Shown: positions 40,093 through 53,877, numbered from the stretch's first letter. The stretch: 64,000 nt of DNA from a bacterium (GCA_965204535.1 CBDBEV010000001.1:1152001-1216000), one strand, 5' to 3'. Notes: a model not told the origin generated them from the letters alone. Numbers and translations are program-made.

Positions 40093-40974
40093 ATGACCAC
40101 CACCACCCTCTCTGTTCTTTTCTCGCTTTCAACGGCGCTCGTGGTCGGCTCCTTCACCCTTTTCGTGAGAAGCGGGCAGCGGCACGCGAACGCGGTATCG
40201 GGCGTACTCATCGGGCTCATCGTATCCATGCCGCCGCTGCTCGTGGGCGCTATATGGACGTGGGAGCCCGCCCACTACCAGCCTCTGGGCTGGTTGTTCT
40301 TCGCGCTGGCCGGTATCGCGGGACCCGCCGTGGGAAGGGTGTGTTTCTTCCATTCGATTCATTTGATGGGCGTGGCGCGCGCAGTGCCGCTCAACTCCAC
40401 CATGCCGCTTTTCTCGGCGATCATAGGTGTCTATGTCTTGGGCGAGAGGCCGGGGCCGTACATTCTGGCGGGTACGGTGCTCATCGTTTTGGGATGTATG
40501 GGGATTACGGCGAAAAGGGGAGGGACTCAGCCCACCCGCGGAAGCTACCTGCTTATTGCACTCGGAAGCGTGGTTTTCTTCTCCGTCTCGCACATGCTTC
40601 GAAAACTTGGCGTAGGTTCAACGCCCAATCCGTATCTGGGCATATCGCTAATGAGCGTCTCTGGAGGTGTCTTCCTCTATGTCTTTGGGCAGTACCTGCC
40701 GCCTGCCTTAAGGCCCTCCTTGATGGTAAAAAAAGCATGGGTGGCGTACAGCATCGGCGGTTTGCTGAATACTCTTTCGGTTCTCCTGCATCTCTACGGA
40801 CTTCGTTACGGAGACCTCACCATCGTGATTCCGCTCGCCGCCACCGCGCCTTTGTGGGCGCTGCTTCTTACGGCCATATTCATGCGCAAACTCGAGCGCA
40901 TCACCTGGCCGATTCTACTGGGTACGGTGGCGGTGGTCGTGGGCGGTGCGCTCGTGGCAGGCCGCGCACTCTGA
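40093..40974 (+). CDS. EamA/DMT family transporter
   Basis: 10 TM in two repeats; P..GR...F..I...GV.RA.P motif. Confidence 0.88.
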   Translation: MTTTTLSVLFSLSTALVVGSFTLFVRSGQRHANAVSGVLIGLIVSMPPLLVGAIWTWEPAHYQPLGWLFFALAGIAGPAVGRVCFFHSIHLMGVARAVPLNSTMPLFSAIIGVYVLGERPGPYILAGTVLIVLGCMGITAKRGGTQPTRGSYLLIALGSVVFFSVSHMLRKLGVGSTPNPYLGISLMSVSGGVFLYVFGQYLPPALRPSLMVKKAWVAYSIGGLLNTLSVLLHLYGLRYGDLTIVIPLAATAPLWALLLTAIFMRKLERITWPILLGTVAVVVGGALVAGRAL

Positions 40975-41109
40975 CGAGGCGGGGTTCGGTCTGTTCTGGT
41001 ATAGTGAGGCAGGTCACGGATTTTTACTTCGCGCGTCGCCAATCTATCATTTCACCAGGCAGGCAAAGAAGGTTCATCCTTGCCAAGTTTGTATAGGAGA
41101 GAAGTGGAT

Positions 41110-41523
41110 ATGAAATTCATTCACACTTTTTTTTGTGCTATTGCGCTAATCGCTCTTTTGGGAGCAATGCCAGCCTTGGGTGCGAATAAAGGTATGGGGA
41201 AATCTACGATGAAAGGCGCGGCGAAGGGCGGCATCACGCTCAAAATCGCCGGTGGGAAGATTGAAGGCAACAAAAAAGTGGTTCGCGTGAAACAAGGCGA
41301 TGAAGTCAAGTTGAATCTGATGGCCGACAAAACCACCGAAGTCCATCTACACGGCTACGACATCGAAAAAACCGTCTCCCCTGGCCGGGTGGCCGTGATG
41401 GCGTTTCGGGCCAAGGTGGCGGGCCGGTTTCCCGTAACGGAGCATGGCTCTCATTCCCACGGGCAGAAAAAAAGCGGGGGTCATTCCGAAAAGGTGCTCT
41501 TCTACCTGGAGGTGCATCCGTGA
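41110..41523 (+). CDS. Secreted cupredoxin-like, His-rich protein
   Basis: Signal peptide; VRVKQGDEVKL...EVHLHGYDI...F.A...GRFPVTEH; HGSHSHG insert; ends LEVHP. Confidence 0.7.
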   Translation: MKFIHTFFCAIALIALLGAMPALGANKGMGKSTMKGAAKGGITLKIAGGKIEGNKKVVRVKQGDEVKLNLMADKTTEVHLHGYDIEKTVSPGRVAVMAFRAKVAGRFPVTEHGSHSHGQKKSGGHSEKVLFYLEVHP

Positions 41524-41536
41524 CGAGGACAATCCT

Positions 41537-42988
41537 GTGAACCCCTATACCCGAGGGCTGGGCCTCGTTGTCCTCATCGCGTTTTCCCCCGCATCCGTAT
41601 CGGCGCATGGGTTCGGTCAAAGGTATGATCTGCCCGTGCCGCTGGGTTTGTTCATGCTCGGGGCGGGCGCATCCGTGGTGCTTTCGTTTTTGGGCATGGG
41701 GCTTTTCGTACGTAAAAAACAAGATAGCGTGGGTTATCCTAGCTGTAACCTGCTCGCCTCCCCCCTTTTCGCATGGATGGGGAGCAAGGTCTTCTTGTTG
41801 TTGATACGAGCTCTTTCCGTCATTTTGTTTTGTGTGACGCTGGCGGCGGGCATCTGGGGAAGCGAAAACCCGGACAAGAACATCGCGCCCACCATGGTCT
41901 GGATCATCTGGTGGGTGGGTCTGGCCTATGTATGCGCGCTGGCGGGGAACCTGTGGTCGCTGGTGAATCCATGGAGCATCATATTTTCCTGGGCGGAGGC
42001 GCTGTACCGGAAAATCAGGCCCGGCGGTTCGTTATCGCCGGAGCAGCCGTTCACCGAAAGCCCGGGCGTGTGGCCGGCTGTGGGCTTGTTCCTGTGGTTC
42101 GCCTGGGCGGAGATCGTCTGGCCGCACAACGACCTTCCCCTTAACCTCGCAGTAGCCGCACTCGGGTATTCCATCATCACCTGGACGGGTATGTTCCTGT
42201 ACGGCAAAGAAGCGTGGCTTAGGCGCGGAGAGGCGTTTTCCATCATATTCGGCGTGATGGGACGCTTCTCGATCACACAGGCGCGCGTGAGCGGAAACGG
42301 AAGAAATGAATGGCGTCTGAGGCCGCCGGCTGTGGGCCTTCTGAACACAGACGGCATGAGCAACTCGATGGTGGTGTTGGTGGTGTTGATGCTGGCGACG
42401 GTGAGCTTCGACGGCTTTATCGAAACACCGCTATGGCACTTGCTTCGTGCGTGGATGTACGAAGGAGTCATTTGGGTGGGGCGAGATGCCCTGCTCGTGG
42501 CGGACACTGTGGCGCTCATCGCGGTTCCGATGCTCTTCCTGGGCGTGTATTACCTGTTCTGCATTCTGATGCGCGCCATGAGCGGGAGCGCACTCTCCAC
42601 GGGGGAATTCGCCCGCTTGTTCGTGCTTTCGTTGGTTCCCATCGCGATTGGATACCATGTGGCGCATTATTTCTCCTTTCTCTTCATTCAAGGGCAACGC
42701 ATCATCCCGCTGCTGTCCGATCCCTTCGGGATAGGCTGGAACCTGTGGGGAACCGCTGCCTATAAGGTCGATATCGGTGTCGTTGGCGCGAGAACGACCT
42801 GGTATGTTTCCATTGCCGCGATTGTCATCGGCCATATATGCGCCGTCTATCTGGCGCATGTGACGGCGTTGCGCGCACTCGATAATCGCTTCGCCGCCGT
42901 GCGCAGCCAATATCCGATGCTCGTCCTCATGGTGGGCTATACCATGGTGAGTTTGTGGATCATCGCACAGCCGATAACGGGGGGCTGA
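41537..42988 (+). CDS. Conserved multi-pass membrane protein ('fenitrothion hydrolase'-like annotation family)
   Basis: Signal then AHGFGQRYDLPVP; W..WWVG, NPW, SFDG, PIAIGYHVAHY, SDPFG.GWNL.GT, GH...V..AH, SQYP; GTG start. Confidence 0.7.
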   Translation: MNPYTRGLGLVVLIAFSPASVSAHGFGQRYDLPVPLGLFMLGAGASVVLSFLGMGLFVRKKQDSVGYPSCNLLASPLFAWMGSKVFLLLIRALSVILFCVTLAAGIWGSENPDKNIAPTMVWIIWWVGLAYVCALAGNLWSLVNPWSIIFSWAEALYRKIRPGGSLSPEQPFTESPGVWPAVGLFLWFAWAEIVWPHNDLPLNLAVAALGYSIITWTGMFLYGKEAWLRRGEAFSIIFGVMGRFSITQARVSGNGRNEWRLRPPAVGLLNTDGMSNSMVVLVVLMLATVSFDGFIETPLWHLLRAWMYEGVIWVGRDALLVADTVALIAVPMLFLGVYYLFCILMRAMSGSALSTGEFARLFVLSLVPIAIGYHVAHYFSFLFIQGQRIIPLLSDPFGIGWNLWGTAAYKVDIGVVGARTTWYVSIAAIVIGHICAVYLAHVTALRALDNRFAAVRSQYPMLVLMVGYTMVSLWIIAQPITGG

Positions 42989-43139
42989 CGGCCTGCGGGC
43001 AAACGGGCGGTTAACTATTTCACCTCCTGCGCCGCTTTATCTTGCCTCGACATGGCCATGTCCCCCCTCCTCTGATAAGACATCATCCTTGTGCCGTTTC
43101 TGTTCATATTTTTTCTTATTTTAGGCTGGGGGAAACGTC

Positions 43140-44021
43140 TTGAACGATACGCTGCTGGCGGCGGGGTTCGCCTTGGGCACCGCGTCAATGTCCTCGGCCT
43201 TCAGCCTCATCGCCAGACGCGGGCAACGGCACGGCACGGCCATCACGGGCGTGGTCATCGGTCTGATTGTGAACGTCCCCTGGCTGGTAGCGCTGACCAT
43301 CCTCACCTGGGAACCCGCCTATTGGAGCTCGGAAGCCTGGTTCTGGTTCTTCCTGTCGGGCATCACGGGACCCTCGCTCGGCCGAGTGTTCATGTTCCGG
43401 GCGATACATCGCCTGGGCGTTTCACGCGCGGTTCCCCTCCTGGCGGCCAATCCGCTTTTTTCGGCCGGTTTCGCCTATATTTTTCTTGGGGAGCGGCCGG
43501 GGCCTTACGTGTGGGCGGGGATTTTCCTGGTCGTTTTGGGGTGCGTGGGGATCACCTACCAGCGCAAGAGCGACGCTCCCTGGGACAGGCGCGCCATCTG
43601 GCTGCCGCTCTTGTCCGTTCTGGGGTTTTCCACGTCGAACATTTTCAGAAAAATCGGGATCGAGGTCGTTCCTTCCGCACTACTCGGCATCACGCTCACC
43701 AGTTTTTTCGGTTTGGTGGCGCTGGTCGCGGTTTTGTGGTTTCTGCCTAAACCCCAGCGCCCGTCTCTCAAGTGGGGAAAGGCCTGGCATTTCTATGGGC
43801 CCTGTGGGCTCATCAACACGCTGGCGTTTTTGAGTCACTTCGCCGCTTTGAAATATGGGGATATTTCGGTCGTATCGCCGCTTTCATCCACCGCGCCGCT
43901 TTTCGCGCTCTTCTACACCTGGATTTTCCTGCGCGATATGGAGCGCATTACGTTGCCCATATTGATGGGGACGGTCTGCGTCGTCGCGGGAGGGGCGATC
44001 ATCGCCTTGAAAGCGATGTAG
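43140..44021 (+). CDS. EamA/DMT family transporter (paralog of 40093-40974)
   Basis: Shares GQRH..A..GV.IGLIV, WEPA.., LGERPGPY, YGD...V.PL, ERIT.PIL.GT with the first copy. Confidence 0.88.
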   Translation: MNDTLLAAGFALGTASMSSAFSLIARRGQRHGTAITGVVIGLIVNVPWLVALTILTWEPAYWSSEAWFWFFLSGITGPSLGRVFMFRAIHRLGVSRAVPLLAANPLFSAGFAYIFLGERPGPYVWAGIFLVVLGCVGITYQRKSDAPWDRRAIWLPLLSVLGFSTSNIFRKIGIEVVPSALLGITLTSFFGLVALVAVLWFLPKPQRPSLKWGKAWHFYGPCGLINTLAFLSHFAALKYGDISVVSPLSSTAPLFALFYTWIFLRDMERITLPILMGTVCVVAGGAIIALKAM

Positions 44022-44041
44022 CGCGCCGCTTTGCGCCCTGA

Positions 44042-44587
44042 TCAACCCGTGAGAAGCGCCCTGATCGTGGGAGCGATTTCCTTCGCGCGCCCACGGAGTT
44101 GCTCATCCGTGAGGCTGCCCACCGGATGGGGAATATAGGCCACCGGATAGTCCGGCATGCCGCGCACCTTGGAGACCATCTCGACCGTGGGCCGGAACGG
44201 CTCGGTGCAGATGACGGCGGTGGGGACGCCTTTTTTCTCGAGTTCGATTCCATCGTGCACACTGCACGAAGAGCAGGAGCCTCAGTCGCCCACCGCAGTG
44301 ATGGCGAGGTCGCATTTCTCGGCCATCTCCGCGTAAACCTCCGGCTTGGCCGGGCGGGTGTCGTATTCTTTCGATAGCTCAACGGCGAGATTTGGGTCCG
44401 CGCCGTCCGCCCGCAATTCATCCAGTATGTAGCGCATCAGCTTGTCCGCGCCTACCTTGGAGTTCCAGAGCAGGCCGATGCGCTTGCCGGAGAGCGCGCC
44501 GTCGCGGCTTGTGCGGTCTTCGGTTTCGATTTCCGGCTCCACGGTCGGATCGTAAATCGGTATCGCCGCCTCCACTATGGGGTTCAT
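44042..44587 (-). CDS. UGSC-family selenoprotein (in-frame UGA at 44282-44284 read as Sec), 181 aa
   Basis: The two ORFs 44282..44653 and 44042..44260 are in one frame and joined by a single TGA: AITAVGD-U-GSCSSCSVHDGIELEKKGVP...HP. GAGGAGG RBS before ATG 44587. SECIS-like hairpin follows the TGA. Confidence 0.9.
44253..44269 (-). promoter_or_regulatory. Candidate bacterial SECIS hairpin
   Basis: On the mRNA strand, UCGUGCA-GUG-UGCACGA starts 12 nt after the UGA; G-containing apical loop. Confidence 0.65.
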
Positions 44588-44677
44588 CGAATACCTCCTC
44601 TTGTGTATGTATGACTGCGCAGATGATTTCTCGTATCGTATTCCATCAATCAATCTTCTCTTCTGACACTTCTTTCT

Positions 44678-45718
44678 TCAACCACGAGACTCGCGCCGTT
44701 CGGCCGCGCTCAGCACAGGGCGGGTGACGAACTCGCCGTTTCGCCTTCTGCTCCATGAGGGAACCCAGGAGGAATGCCCGCCGGCCTCGCCTCCCGCGAC
44801 GACGATGTAGATGTCTTCGGGCTTGAGCGCGTGGCGCACATTACCGTTTTTATCGGCGTCGATGGGCTTGTCGAGCTTGCCGGTGCGCAGGAGTTGGCTC
44901 AAGGGAAGCGTCGCCTTTTCAAACAGATACTCTTTCAGCTCCTTTTTCGAGGGAAATTCCTCGGCCAGCAGATGCACGTGCTCAGGCGCAAAGACGAAAC
45001 AAGATTGCCCCTCGCTCATGCTGCCCAGACCCGCCATGGTGGCGGCGGCGGTTTCCGCAATTCCGCGCCCCTTTCCATAGTGGTTCTGGATGTTGTGCGG
45101 ACTCTCGGCGGCGAGAAGCGTCACCGTACTTGTTTGAGTTGAATAGCCGAGTTCGACGTTCAATGGCTCCCAAGGGCTCGTTTCCTCCCATTCGGCGAAG
45201 GTGAAGCTGTATTTGCCCGGATTCCCCTGGGTGGAGCGATCCAGAAGGCCCGGCTTCGAACCCAGGCAGTTGATGATGATAAGCCTGAGCGCGCGGCCTA
45301 TCGTCGCTCCCGCGCGGTTGCCCGGCCCGTAAATGTTCCCCTGCATGTTGAGGCCAATCTCATGGCGAATCGGGCCGTTTACGACCATGAAGGGCGCTGC
45401 TCCGCCCGTGCTCGTGGCGCTGGAGTGAATGTTGTAGGCCGGATTGGCCATGGCTTCGAGCGCGGCGAGTATGACGGGCATATAGGAGGGCAGACACCCC
45501 GCCATGATGGCGTTCAGGGCCACTTTTCCGGCCCGGACGGTTCTTTTCCGCTCCGCCAGATGAAAGACGACGTCATCGGCGTCGAGTCCCGAAGCCTCCA
45601 GAAAGTGCTCCAAGAGGTCAGGCGTCGGGGGAACCACGGGCAGGCCGTCCGTCCAGCCTTTCTCGTGATACATTTCTATCGCCTCATAGACGTCCGCCGC
45701 TTCACTCACCGCTTCCAT
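44678..45718 (-). CDS. Conserved uncharacterised partner of UGSC-family proteins
   Basis: GWTDGLPVVPPT, NAIMAGC, NGP, GPGNRAGATIGRALRL, GNPGKY, E.SPW, VAGG motifs; same strand, directly upstream of the selenoprotein. Confidence 0.8.
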   Translation of the reverse strand: MEAVSEAADVYEAIEMYHEKGWTDGLPVVPPTPDLLEHFLEASGLDADDVVFHLAERKRTVRAGKVALNAIMAGCLPSYMPVILAALEAMANPAYNIHSSATSTGGAAPFMVVNGPIRHEIGLNMQGNIYGPGNRAGATIGRALRLIIINCLGSKPGLLDRSTQGNPGKYSFTFAEWEETSPWEPLNVELGYSTQTSTVTLLAAESPHNIQNHYGKGRGIAETAAATMAGLGSMSEGQSCFVFAPEHVHLLAEEFPSKKELKEYLFEKATLPLSQLLRTGKLDKPIDADKNGNVRHALKPEDIYIVVAGGEAGGHSSWVPSWSRRRNGEFVTRPVLSAAERRESRG

Positions 45719-45908
45719 GTGGTCTCCTGTGTATGGGATGATTATTTACCATAAAACAACAGGATACCGCAGGGAGCCGGTTTTGAAAATGCGGGTTTGC
45801 GTCCCGGGCTCCCGGTTTCATTGATGCTTCGGGACTGGTATATCATCCCTTCGGTATCTGGTATCCGGCCGCCGCTTTCGGGTGCGGCGCATATAAATGA
45901 AGAGGGGA

Positions 45909-46520
45909 ATGTCTCGTATGGATTTCGAGTTGATTCGCGCCGTAAACGCCCATTTTGAGCCATTTTATCCCTATGCGGCGGCGGAGATTCACGCTGAATA
46001 CGGGCGCGCTACGGGCGACGTCCTCGAAATCGGCCCCTACGGCCCCGGCGTGGTGCTCGCCCTGGCGGCGCGCTGCCCCGGGATGCGCCTCACATGCGGA
46101 GACGATACCGACCGCTTGAACGACTACCTCGCCGAAACGGTTGCGGAGGCGGGCATGTCCGCGCGCGTCCGCGTGGAACCACTTGATAAATATAGCCTTC
46201 CGTTCGAGGCTGGCTCTTTCGACCTCGTCGTCTTCCGGGGCGGGCTTTTCTTCTGGGAGGAGCAGGAGAGAATCGTCGCCGAGATGAATCGCGTCCTGAA
46301 GCCCGGCGGGATGGGCGCGCACGGCGGCGGTTTCGGGGCGGGGGCGTCGGATGCGCTCATCGAATCGCTGCTGCCCGAAGCGCGCGCGTTGAACGACCGC
46401 CTCGGCAAGAAGCGCCTCTCTCGCGCGGATGTGCGCCAAATCGCTGAAAATGCAGGACTTGCGTTTTTCAGAATCGCGTCCGAACACGGCCTTTGGCTCT
46501 TTTGGGAGAAGACGGGCTAG
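45909..46520 (+). CDS. Class I SAM-dependent methyltransferase
   Basis: VLEIGPYGPG motif I variant, LPFEAGSFDLVV, RVLKPGG. Confidence 0.8.
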   Translation: MSRMDFELIRAVNAHFEPFYPYAAAEIHAEYGRATGDVLEIGPYGPGVVLALAARCPGMRLTCGDDTDRLNDYLAETVAEAGMSARVRVEPLDKYSLPFEAGSFDLVVFRGGLFFWEEQERIVAEMNRVLKPGGMGAHGGGFGAGASDALIESLLPEARALNDRLGKKRLSRADVRQIAENAGLAFFRIASEHGLWLFWEKTG

Positions 46521-46988
46521 CGTTTTCCGCGCATTTCACACCCCGTAATTCCCCGCATTTGCCGTCGCGCGCACGCCTCCTGAGCCGTGGTATTCTCACG
46601 GTGCTTCTGCGGGGGAGGGGATTTTCACCCGCGAAACTCCCCGCATTTGCCCGCACTTCCCCTCGAAAATTTGTCGGCAATTTATCGAAAAACACCGTGA
46701 ATTTATCGATATTTATCGAATTTTCCAGAAATTCCTTATTCTCGAACGCGGCGGTGCGCTTCTCCATCATACTCCGGTGCGCTGAATATCCCGCGACGGC
46801 AAATGCTGGGAAATGCGTGGTCAAAAGCGAGCGAGGAGCGAGCGTTTGCGCGCCCCGAGGAGGTCAATCGCGACCGAGGGAAAGTGATTCTTAGTTGCCG
46901 ACAGATGAAAGAGGGTCAGGCTCGACCGAGAGGGGAGAGTTTGTCGACCGGGGAGGAGGGGCATGGCGAGGTTGCGTCCAGGCTTCTC

Positions 46989-47546
46989 TCACCCGCTCAG
47001 CAAACTCGTCTTCGTGAACACCGCATCCAGCTCGTAGCCGCGCTCGGCGAGGTTCTCGCGGCCGCCTTCTTCGCGGTCCACGAGGCAGATGACATGGACG
47101 ACTTCGAGACCGAAGGCCAGAGCCGCGTCGATGGCCGTGAAGGTGGAGGCTGCGGTGGTTACCACGTCCTCGATGATGGCGGCCTTCATGCCGGGCCTTA
47201 AGTTCCCCGCCCCCTCGATGCGGTTCTGCATCCCGTGGCCCTTCTCGCCCTTGCGGATGATGAAGGCGGGAACATCGCGTCCTTCGAGCGCGGCGGTCAT
47301 CGAGACGGCCGTCACCATCGGGTCAGCACCCAGGGTGGGGCCGCCCACGGCGTCGACGCCCTCCCTGATGCGCTCGTAGATCACCCGGCCCACGAGCCGC
47401 GCCCCCTCGCCGTGCAGCGTCACCTGTCGGCAGTCGACGTAGAAATCGCTCACCCGGCCCGAGGCGAGCGTCACCTGTTTTTTCTCATACGATTTTTCCA
47501 GCAGAAGCCCGCGCAGGGCTTCCAGGTCCGCATCAAAGTTCGTCAT
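46989..47546 (-). CDS. pyrE: Orotate phosphoribosyltransferase
   Basis: TLASG..SDFYVD, RK..K.HG, IIEDVVTT PRPP motif, LVDREEGG. Confidence 0.95.
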   Translation of the reverse strand: MTNFDADLEALRGLLLEKSYEKKQVTLASGRVSDFYVDCRQVTLHGEGARLVGRVIYERIREGVDAVGGPTLGADPMVTAVSMTAALEGRDVPAFIIRKGEKGHGMQNRIEGAGNLRPGMKAAIIEDVVTTAASTFTAIDAALAFGLEVVHVICLVDREEGGRENLAERGYELDAVFTKTSLLSG

Positions 47547-52367: not shown

Positions 52368-53877
52368 GGGGCTGTTGAAAAACCCCGTTTTGAAGCGGGA
52401 TGTATGGTGGCTCACGCGGCCTGGGAGAGGAAGCCCAATCGGCGCGTGAGGCCGCGATATGCGCTCATTCGGCGTTTCCGGGCGGCCCAGGCCCGCCACA
52501 GAGCGAATAAACCCGCGGCCACAGCGGCGGCGAGCCGCTTGAGGTTCACCGCAGTCGCCGTCAGGTAGGCCTGGATCTTCACGTTCGCAAGACCCCGGCG
52601 CACCGCCCGCGCCAGTCCGTGCCGACTCTTCGCTTCGCCGTGGTAGCCCTCCGAGCGACCCATGTGGCGCCGCCACAGCCGGCCCTCCTCCTCCCCACGG
52701 CGCGCGTGGCGACGGCGCGCGCGCAACAGCGCCGGATACTCGTGCGGAATCAGAACCGCCCTGCTCGTGCGAGACGCCGACAGACAATCGGCCTTGAGCG
52801 CGCACCCCGCGCAATCGCGGGTCCTCGATACATACCAGCGCCCCCGCTCCGTCTCCTTCCGGGGGCGCAGCGTCTTGCCCCCCGGACACTTCACCACCTT
52901 GTGACGCTCGTCGTAGCGGAACAGCTGCAACGGCACCCGGCTCTGGGAAGGCTCCTTCTTCGCCGGTATCACCGCGTCCACCCCCCGACGCTCCAATGCG
53001 CCGTACACCTTCGAGTACGCATAGCCCGAATCCGCCGTCACCACCGCGGGCGCGCGCCCCGTGAGTTCGCAAACCGCATCCAGCTGCGGCTCCATCATCT
53101 CCCGCTCGTTCAACGTCCCCTCCGTCACCTCTACGTCGAGAACCACCCCCCGCTCATCGTCCACCACCGCGTGGTGCTTGTAGCTCGGCTCGAACCCCGC
53201 CCGAGCGCTCTTGCGCGCCAGACGCGCGTCGGGGTCCGTACGGCTCACCGGACCCGAACCCCCGCCCTTCTTCCCCGTCTCATCCGCCGAGTCGTTCTCC
53301 CGCACCACCTTCTCCGCGTGGCGCGCCGCCAGACTCTCCCAACTCACGTCCGCGCGTATCAAAGACGCGTCCATGTGAACCACTTCTCCCTTCGCCACCT
53401 TCGCCTCCACGCAAGACTGAACCGTGCGCCGAAATATCTCCTTGAACCGCTCCTCCCCCCAGCGTTGACGGATACGCGTCAGGCTCGAATGATCCGGCAA
53501 ATCCTCGTCCAGCCTGTACCCGATGAACCACCGGACCGCCAGATGCGCCTGCGCCTCGCGCAGCAGGCGGCGGTCCTCCGCGTAGCCCAGCAGCAGGCCC
53601 GCCAGCATCAACCGCACCACCACTTCCGGGTCGATCCCCGGTCGACCGTTGTCCGCGCAATAGCACTCCGCCACTTCCTCGCGAAGCCAACTCAAATCCA
53701 GTACGCGGTCCACCTGGCGCAATATGTGATCTTCGGGAATCAACTTCTCCAGCGGGCCGGCCACGAACAAGTCCATCTGCTCGCGCCTCTTGCGGTCCAA
53801 CATCTCCGGAACTCCCATCTCGGGCGAGGGGGAATACATCCATACGATCACAAAACCAGGGGTTTTTCAACAGCCCC
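52368..53877 (-). mobile_element. IS1182-family insertion sequence
   Basis: Perfect 19-bp TIR GGGGCTGTTGAAAAACCCC at both ends; CTCAA duplicated on both sides; single transposase ORF. Confidence 0.92.
52412..53803 (-). CDS. IS1182-family DDE transposase
   Basis: LIPEDH.L..VD, GRPGIDP, LPDHSSL, DAS, S.TDPDA, ADSGY, C..C.LK..C, E...GEAK, NLKRL; start MLDRK at 53803. Confidence 0.92.
   Translation of the reverse strand: MLDRKRREQMDLFVAGPLEKLIPEDHILRQVDRVLDLSWLREEVAECYCADNGRPGIDPEVVVRLMLAGLLLGYAEDRRLLREAQAHLAVRWFIGYRLDEDLPDHSSLTRIRQRWGEERFKEIFRRTVQSCVEAKVAKGEVVHMDASLIRADVSWESLAARHAEKVVRENDSADETGKKGGGSGPVSRTDPDARLARKSARAGFEPSYKHHAVVDDERGVVLDVEVTEGTLNEREMMEPQLDAVCELTGRAPAVVTADSGYAYSKVYGALERRGVDAVIPAKKEPSQSRVPLQLFRYDERHKVVKCPGGKTLRPRKETERGRWYVSRTRDCAGCALKADCLSASRTSRAVLIPHEYPALLRARRRHARRGEEEGRLWRRHMGRSEGYHGEAKSRHGLARAVRRGLANVKIQAYLTATAVNLKRLAAAVAAGLFALWRAWAARKRRMSAYRGLTRRLGFLSQAA

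Follow-up and report, generated by a model that had tools for sequence, protein, structure and literature searches.

Positions 44042-45718 of a 64,000-nucleotide stretch of bacterial DNA (GCA_965204535.1, CBDBEV010000001.1:1152001-1216000; the whole stretch is called the window) hold two genes, both on the minus strand, which encode a UGSC-family selenoprotein and a conserved partner protein. Judged from sequence comparison, the pair may be a reductive-cleavage enzyme of two subunits that acts on small organic acids with electrons from thioredoxin (probability about 0.5), and it is likely a distant relative of glycine and proline reductase. The locus is a real selenoprotein gene with the constant partner of an already known, functionally open family, and is one ordinary copy among thousands. 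A first-pass annotation had presented the selenoprotein as hidden; this description was dropped, as the 'UGSC-containing protein' family was named in 2007 (Zhang and Gladyshev, PMC1976440) and the partner segment AVNAVMAGC...VNGP is the 'Unknown_1' domain drawn fused to UGSC in Fig. S1A of a 2008 paper (Zhang and Gladyshev 2008, PMC2398784). In the Global Ocean Sampling data UGSC ranked among the most abundant families of selenoproteins (255 sequences), and the 2008 paper classed it as a major family of sea and fresh water (PMC2398784); a 2026 review still placed it with the functionally uncharacterised selenoproteins (PMC13188914). No publication assigning a function to UGSC was found in a search that lay mostly outside the subscription journals.

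The TGA that interrupts the UGSC gene almost certainly encodes selenocysteine (Sec) and is read through. The two open reading frames (ORFs; 44653/44587..44282 and 44260..44042) have a common frame whose sole break is this TGA (44284..44282), reached 101 codons after the ATG at 44587, and the frame runs on to 44042; translation from the ATG with TGA as U gave 181 amino acids (...AVGD-U-GSCSSCSVHDG...), in agreement with the single broken frame described in the first-pass annotation. Its remark that the downstream half lacks a convincing ribosome-binding site also held: none of the start codons in frame past the TGA (codons 110, 137 and 141) has a clear Shine-Dalgarno sequence. The read-through protein matched PF24696 (183.6 bits, cut-off 25) and NF041046 (147.1 bits, cut-off 125) over its whole length, which confirmed the proposed family membership; whole-length match, U-G-S-C motif and a hairpin directly after the UGA are common to the family, nothing sets the present gene apart from it, and at this locus the two parts are encoded by separate genes, with UxxCxxC as the motif. 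TGA was retained in 29/29 related loci (22 close orthologues and 7 from Chloroflexota) as well as in each of the host genome's 8 UGSC paralogues, and exactly one TGA was present in each of the 150 listed PF24696 matches (of 229) from the host's phylum. At the same position, cysteine was found in 21 full-length database homologues, and a Cys codon was read in the DNA of 9 distinct homologue sequences, haloarchaeal plasmids included; the Cys orthologues are single ORFs. The host genome encodes tRNA-Sec (selC, 75.9 bits), selA, selB and selD, all above cut-off, as had been anticipated, and its selD gene also contains an in-frame TGA. Across 21 orthologues, synonymous change amounted to 0.22 per codon and non-synonymous change to 0.06 and 0.04 in the two halves, the pattern of purifying selection. 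The earlier concern about a sequencing error was not borne out: among the listed matches in run contigs (from one RNA run and three runs that are DNA-type or unlabelled; one of the four may be the source of the window) no other letter or indel occurred at the TGA. That the TGA is a true stop or an error, leaving two small proteins or a pseudogene, is therefore very improbable in view of the conserved TGA, the selection on both halves, the unbroken Cys orthologues, the selABCD genes and the hairpin covariation described next, even though the 101-amino-acid half has been entered in databases as a protein and the 60 nt from the TGA on, folded alone, are not more stable than shuffled sequences (z = -0.44).

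In this 60-nt fold the hairpin TCGTGCA-GTG-TGCACGA (44269..44253) forms and begins exactly 12 nt after the TGA, with the 7-bp stem and GUG loop that the first-pass annotation had described. Its stability being ordinary, the case for a selenocysteine insertion sequence (SECIS) stands on covariation, not on folding energy. For this analysis 85 distinct Sec sequences were taken from 137 rows, and rows in which the motif was missed by the search pattern or cut off were dropped. Stem pairing was retained in 94.3% of 595 cells, with 41 cells changed on both sides, which 0/500 shuffles reached, with the caveat that kin sequences can beat shuffles without any structure; controls with the stem slid along the alignment gave 13-56%. 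The number of stem pairs with a double change (3) was not above shuffles (248/500), and the top two column pairs by mutual information were both stem pairs. The apical loop read GUN in 84/85 Sec sequences compared with 0/9 Cys sequences, in which stem pairing was down to 47/63 cells. Covariation and the loop G thus agree with the bacterial SECIS placement proposed earlier, and the hairpin behaves like a SECIS. A literature search for compensatory changes in SECIS elements found nothing on the UGSC family.

The same covariation extends into the protein sequence. Codons 107-111 showed zero change across 21 orthologues, and over the 85 Sec sequences position 108 held Cys 50 times, Trp 17 times, Gly 16 times and Ser twice. 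A codon 108 ending in G was accompanied by a codon 110 ending in C in 17/18 cases; this third-base change is synonymous for Val and Leu and is therefore an RNA-level signal. Where Cys108 is replaced by Gly or Ser, His111 is replaced by Leu, preserving another stem pair; residues 108 and 111 are helix neighbours, so a coupling at the protein level could also operate there. The 'extra Cys' that had been noted beside the redox-like motif is thus a variable residue tied to the SECIS stem, inside which its codon lies, and Cys108 as a catalytic feature of the family was rejected; residues 108 and 111 are not to be taken as catalytic on conservation alone.

The selenoprotein and its partner in all likelihood form one complex. 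The first-pass annotation had noted the association with proteins of the 'GWTDGLP..PPT' type, and this coupling proved tight: a UGSC gene was found within 600 nt of the partner gene in 66/80 metagenome loci (taken as the best of 596 confirmed loci, many of them on short contigs) and in 16/17 plasmid loci, in both gene orders, and UGSC-partner fusions exist in both orders as well. Among 49 related genomes of the host's phylum, 41 hold both families and the other 8 neither. The host genome has 8 UGSC and 15 partner genes, the partner profile finding only its own paralogues. Where a partner gene occurs without UGSC, no hidden in-frame selenium domain was seen upstream of it in 15 foreign and 3 host loci. 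At one host locus (C2:2311625-2315888; L009:6667-10888) four partner genes with differing variable loops stand in tandem, and a UGSC gene lies about 2.6 kb beyond them, past an oppositely oriented molybdopterin enzyme gene, so that the tandem partners look as if they were served by a single UGSC. At another (C2:1790731-1793373, L013) a UGSC-partner fusion with the motif U-G-G-C is followed by a second partner gene and preceded by a phosphosulfolactate-synthase-like gene; this ComA-like neighbour recurs in Arthrobacter (L088) and Natrinema (L094). A partner subfamily without UGSC in the DNA at hand occurs in mreB/mreC context (L129, L138, L172, L177) or beside helix-hairpin-helix and ABC-F genes (L140, L154), and the UGSC for this housekeeping-context subfamily may be encoded elsewhere.

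The link to glycine and proline reductase comes from the region around Sec102. Profile comparison (hhalign) of UGSC with a profile built from the GrdB/PrdB-like proteins of 31 loci of the host's phylum gave a probability of 94.5% (E 7.6e-8) over 63 columns with Sec aligned on Sec, compared with no more than 0.63% for 20 profiles with shuffled columns and 0.21% for the reversed profile. The region aligned with GrdB/GrdF/GrdH and PrdB consists of a strand, U-G-x-C, a helix ending ELE.xG[IV]P, a further strand and a later H-P. Matches of UGSC members to TIGR01917 (18/40) and TIGR04483 (10/40; E up to 0.05) are insufficient alone because 8/40 also match the unrelated TIGR02032. The likeness includes the UxxCxxC of the present copy (UxxCxxC is the GrdB motif; PMC13188914), dependence of a small Sec subunit on a larger partner, and a dithiol as likely electron source. 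In D-proline reductase, the Sec of PrdB attacks the alpha carbon of the substrate, which PrdA binds via a pyruvoyl group (PMC11229817). By contrast, the UGSC pair has no adjoining GrdE/PrdA pyruvoyl proprotein (the partner matched nothing in Pfam or NCBIfam at E 0.01, and the flanking genes encode an EamA transporter and a methyltransferase) and no GrdA/GrdC gene, and its partner family is unrelated. The curated cut-offs (TIGR01917, TIGR01918, PF07355) were not reached (20.4 versus 602.2 bits, 16.6 versus 65.45 bits), and the 4 PF07355 matches of the host genome are genes other than UGSC; the host has its own separate GrdB-type gene and three PrdB-like genes. Since the partner is not PrdA/GrdE-like, membership in the GrdB/PrdB family fails while the working analogy stands. 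The host's GrdB-type gene (C2:69894-76211, L048) has the motif U-G-T-G-T-R-S, common to most GrdB-type genes of the host's genus, with no resolving Cys, and by eye GrdC- and GrdE-like genes lie upstream. The three PrdB-like selenoprotein genes (C2:2666124, C2:2200552 and C2:1608223; L049-L051) stand alone with motifs U-P-L-C and U-G-L-C, with no obvious PrdA among their listed neighbouring ORFs.

In the model of the UGSC subunit (predicted local distance difference test, pLDDT, 91.5; Sec replaced by Cys) there are five strands, and U-x-x-C opens the helix that follows strand 3; the subunit is predicted to be flavodoxin-like. The listed fold matches were flavodoxin-like and Rossmann-type sandwiches, none of them clear (best Z 10.5, next 9.5), and no thioredoxin-fold chain was among these listed rows, whereas a thioredoxin-like fold had been proposed for UGSC in 2008 (PMC2398784); a match to a family outside the listed rows is conceivable. 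Among solved structures searched by sequence, the UGSC profile found nothing and a single UGSC protein two non-significant rows; a Cys UGSC homologue searched against the ESM Atlas, with PF24696 entries skipped, returned no usable match.

The partner, a 346-amino-acid ORF as annotated before, belongs to a large family with at least 6745 homologues (of 7998 candidates scored; 4798 clusters at 50% identity). Its conserved polar residues are D24 (136/136 aligned homologues), R142 (136), E176 (135), N69, N150, C75 (130), T104 and D160, and Cys75 is also present in all 15 host paralogues; the loops at about 96-108, 203-214, 228-240 and 306-326 vary between paralogues. The AlphaFold2 model has a pLDDT of 96.9. 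A fold search over 48,161 chains gave no match with Z of 5 or above, which does not imply a novel fold; a search of solved structures by sequence found nothing, and in the ESM Atlas just the partner's own clusters were found, unnamed or labelled 'thioredoxin family'. Seven proteins of 616-741 amino acids (P0123, P0128, P0130, P0133, P0155, P0214 and P0221) appear to carry tandem partner domains (2-3 matched stretches, no Pfam match).

The best structural match of the partner, the alpha/N-domain of class I (Fe-S) fumarate hydratase (Foldseek E 1.5e-3; VIA Z 4.7, root-mean-square deviation 4.9, 173 aligned residues; Z 3.8 on a second look), brings in an alternative, in which the pair is an iron-sulfur (Fe-S, or Fe-S-Se) enzyme, for instance one acting as lyase or dehydratase on di- or tricarboxylic acids, with Sec102, Cys105 and partner Cys75 as ligands of an interface cluster that is delivered by fused Nfu-like domains. 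We regard this as unlikely. The Z scores of 3.8-4.7 lie under the background quoted for the tool, and this weak likeness to the alpha subunit of class I fumarate hydratase and tartrate dehydratase may reflect a common arrangement only. Kinship with fumarase was tried and rejected on profile comparison with two host PF05681 (fumarase-family) proteins (hhalign 0.2 and 0.1%). The class I fumarate hydratase alpha subunit has three Cys cluster ligands; the partner has one conserved Cys instead, with neither profile similarity nor a Pfam match. The Fe-S alternative also draws on the Nfu-like CxxC domains fused in 9 proteins, on aconitase X, cysteine desulfurase and TctC genes near some loci, and on the top UGSC fold row, 8s7v_H (Z 10.5, root-mean-square deviation 3.0, 129 aligned residues), a chain of the MCR activation complex taken from its size to be Mmp7; McrC and Mmp7 of this complex bind Fe-S clusters (PMC12176620). 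This Z score, however, is not clear of unrelated rows (the next, 9.5, is a designed protein), Ser replaces Cys105 in some Sec members, as in GrdB-type proteins of the phylum, and a linkage to TrxB would be unexpected for a dehydratase.

This linkage was seen in gene neighbourhoods and fusions. Genes for TrxB-like thioredoxin reductases occurred in 6/17 plasmid loci (260 kb in total), compared with one in the 4.56-Mb host genome; the order was trxB-trxA-partner-UGSC in Arthrobacter and partner-UGSC-trxB in Roseovarius, and in Variovorax trxB lay three genes upstream. In a set of 150 partner representatives plus 23 UGSC homologues, fusions to a thioredoxin (Trx)-like N-terminal domain were counted in 4 proteins, to TrxB in 1 and to an Nfu-like CxxC domain in 9 (motif counts; the 4 Trx-like domains, the TrxB and 1 Nfu were borne out by Pfam). 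In each of the 4 Trx-like fusions, the Trx-like domain is followed by a [PF]GC[GSA]S linker reminiscent of the UGSC motif. In P0195, P0202, P0212 and P0263 the partner domain is fused to an AhpC/TSA-like domain with such a linker resembling C/U-G-S-C, whose cysteine may be a relay. The oxidoreductase or reductive-cleavage reading gains support from the GrdB/PrdB alignment together with these thioredoxin-system neighbours and fusions. The same UxxC and thioredoxin evidence would suit a thiol/selenol oxidoreductase that acts on sulfur rather than carbon, with Sec attacking the sulfur of a sulfoxide, persulfide, disulfide or thioether of a small molecule and thioredoxin recycling the enzyme; such a role would fit the phosphosulfolactate synthase-like genes found at 3 loci, the DsrE, TusA and cysteine desulfurase genes of 1 locus and the LLM oxygenases of 7/80 loci. 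We consider it quite unlikely, given that these neighbours are a minority, that the closest sequence relatives, GrdB and PrdB, attack carbon and that the listed UGSC fold matches are flavodoxin-like, not thioredoxin-like.

For the reductive-cleavage enzyme, the following sequence of events is proposed. SelB would bind the GUG-loop hairpin, and Sec102 would be inserted; on assembly of the subunits Sec102, positioned where the helix after strand 3 begins, would face D24, C75, T104, R142 and E176 of the partner. The partner is predicted to bind the substrate, with its variable loops setting specificity. Acting as a nucleophile, Sec102 would attack the bound substrate at a carbon-heteroatom bond, like PrdB on D-proline but without a pyruvoyl proprotein. 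Cys105, perhaps with partner Cys75, would resolve the adduct to a selenenylsulfide, which would be re-reduced by electrons passing from NADPH via thioredoxin reductase to thioredoxin. The 8 UGSC and 15 partner copies of the host could then serve different substrates. Tentatively, and with somewhat more doubt than confidence, UGSC and 'Unknown_1' might together make up a large class of reductive lyases, so far undescribed, that depend on Sec and combine a GrdB/PrdB warhead with a partner of unmatched fold and no pyruvoyl cofactor. If so, substrate-specific paralogues would have multiplied within the class (one genome can hold up to 9 UGSC and 16 partner matches), and bacteria, aerobic or anaerobic, as well as haloarchaea would use thioredoxin electrons to break C-N, C-S or C-O bonds of dissolved organic acids. 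The SECIS stem would then dictate residues flanking an active site.

Several observations weigh against the reductive-cleavage enzyme. A TrxB-like gene lies near 1/80 metagenome loci and none near the present locus, the host copy being about 555 kb away, and the Nfu-like fusions (9) outnumber the Trx fusions (4) and are also compatible with an Fe-S enzyme. The likeness to GrdB/PrdB covers about 63 residues only, belongs partly to the C-G-x-C motif and is far under the curated cut-offs. The 49 phylum genomes are kin, and their co-occurrence pattern reflects few independent events; 14/80 partner loci have no UGSC in the DNA at hand, and the host has 15 partners to 8 UGSC. There is no constant neighbour family, the commonest being LLM oxygenases (7/80) and MmgE/PrpD (5/80). 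Finally, members in which Met replaces Sec cannot use Sec/Cys chemistry, which counts against a universal redox role.

The survey of neighbourhoods, from which the first-pass annotation had hoped for substrate clues, covered 234/239 ORFs of the 80 metagenome loci (5 near-duplicates omitted; crude ORF picking, E cut-off 1e-15), 61/118 ORFs around host paralogues and 17/24 plasmid records, and found no constant neighbour that would name a substrate. Besides the two commonest families, the metagenome loci had TctC (3), CoA-transferase III or enoyl-CoA hydratase (3) and thiamine pyrophosphate (TPP) enzymes (3). Recurring catabolic neighbours were CoA-transferases, enoyl-CoA hydratases, acyl-CoA dehydrogenases, LLM oxygenases, MmgE/PrpD, TctC and TRAP transporters, and similar sets surround the host paralogues and the plasmid copies. 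In fusions from Sporomusa and Vibrio plasmids (L092:7317-9041, L093:7368-9053), Met replaces Sec/Cys and Ser replaces Cys105 while partner Cys75 is kept, and each lies near aconitase X and DUF126 genes; these are possibly a non-redox branch. Such members, together with the MmgE/PrpD, enolase-family and racemase genes among the neighbours, would fit a non-redox isomerase, epimerase or lyase in which Sec/Cys acts as covalent nucleophile or base with partner Cys75. For the family at large this is improbable: UxxC is kept in 96/104 rows (each row a gene pair, some repeating a gene, 4 or 5 mis-parsed), as suits a resolving Cys, and the dedicated trxB genes and fusions imply a demand for electrons.

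Now that UGSC has a defined partner, a probable electron donor and a nucleophile of the GrdB/PrdB type, the old question of its function becomes testable, and the natural all-Cys operons of Arthrobacter and Roseovarius in culturable hosts are a ready assay system.

The features of the locus are collected in the table. The gap between the partner and UGSC genes is 90 nt, without a terminator-like site.

Table. Coordinates of the features of the UGSC-partner locus in the window.
Feature	Position	Strand	Basis or remark
Partner gene, 346 aa	44678..45718	-	ORF; motifs GWTDGLPVVPPT, AVMAGC, GRA.RL, AENEE.SPWEP; 'Unknown_1' family; predicted substrate-binding subunit
Partner ribosome-binding site AGGAG	45724..45728	-	sequence
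Partner Cys75 codon, partner's sole conserved cysteine	45494..45496	-	alignment of homologues and paralogues
UGSC gene ribosome-binding site GAGGAGG	44594..44600	-	6 nt upstream of ATG 44587
UGSC-family selenoprotein gene, 181 aa including Sec102	44042..44587	-	PF24696 and NF041046 matches
In-frame TGA, very probable selenocysteine	44282..44284	-	TGA conserved, Cys homologues, Sec machinery
U-G-S-C-S-S-C coding stretch (Sec102, Cys105, Cys108)	44264..44284	-	UxxC is family core, Cys108 variable
SECIS hairpin within coding sequence, codons 107-112	44253..44269	-	7-bp stem, GUG loop; covariation

On one side of the pair lies a convergent EamA transporter gene (43140-44021), on the other a class I S-adenosylmethionine-dependent (SAM) methyltransferase gene (45897-46520), divergent from the partner gene with a 178-nt gap. 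Both flanks were kept in 22/22 close orthologous loci, which is synteny among kin and not evidence of a common function. The stretch is covered by sponge-metagenome DNA runs, and its close relatives are metagenome-assembled genomes of Nitrospinota. A promoter scan found none and gave two terminator-like hits at chance level, and Rfam had no match in window positions 43000-47000. In one metatranscriptome run, contigs were about 92-95% identical over parts of both genes; being a small share and strandless, they were not counted as expression. A second EamA transporter gene lies at 40093-40974 of the window, and between the two are a cupredoxin-like gene (41080-41523) and a gene for a 514-amino-acid membrane protein (41444-42988) with no Pfam match. 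A transposase-like ORF is located at 52412-53851 on the minus strand, and by eye similar copies are present in L013 and L018.

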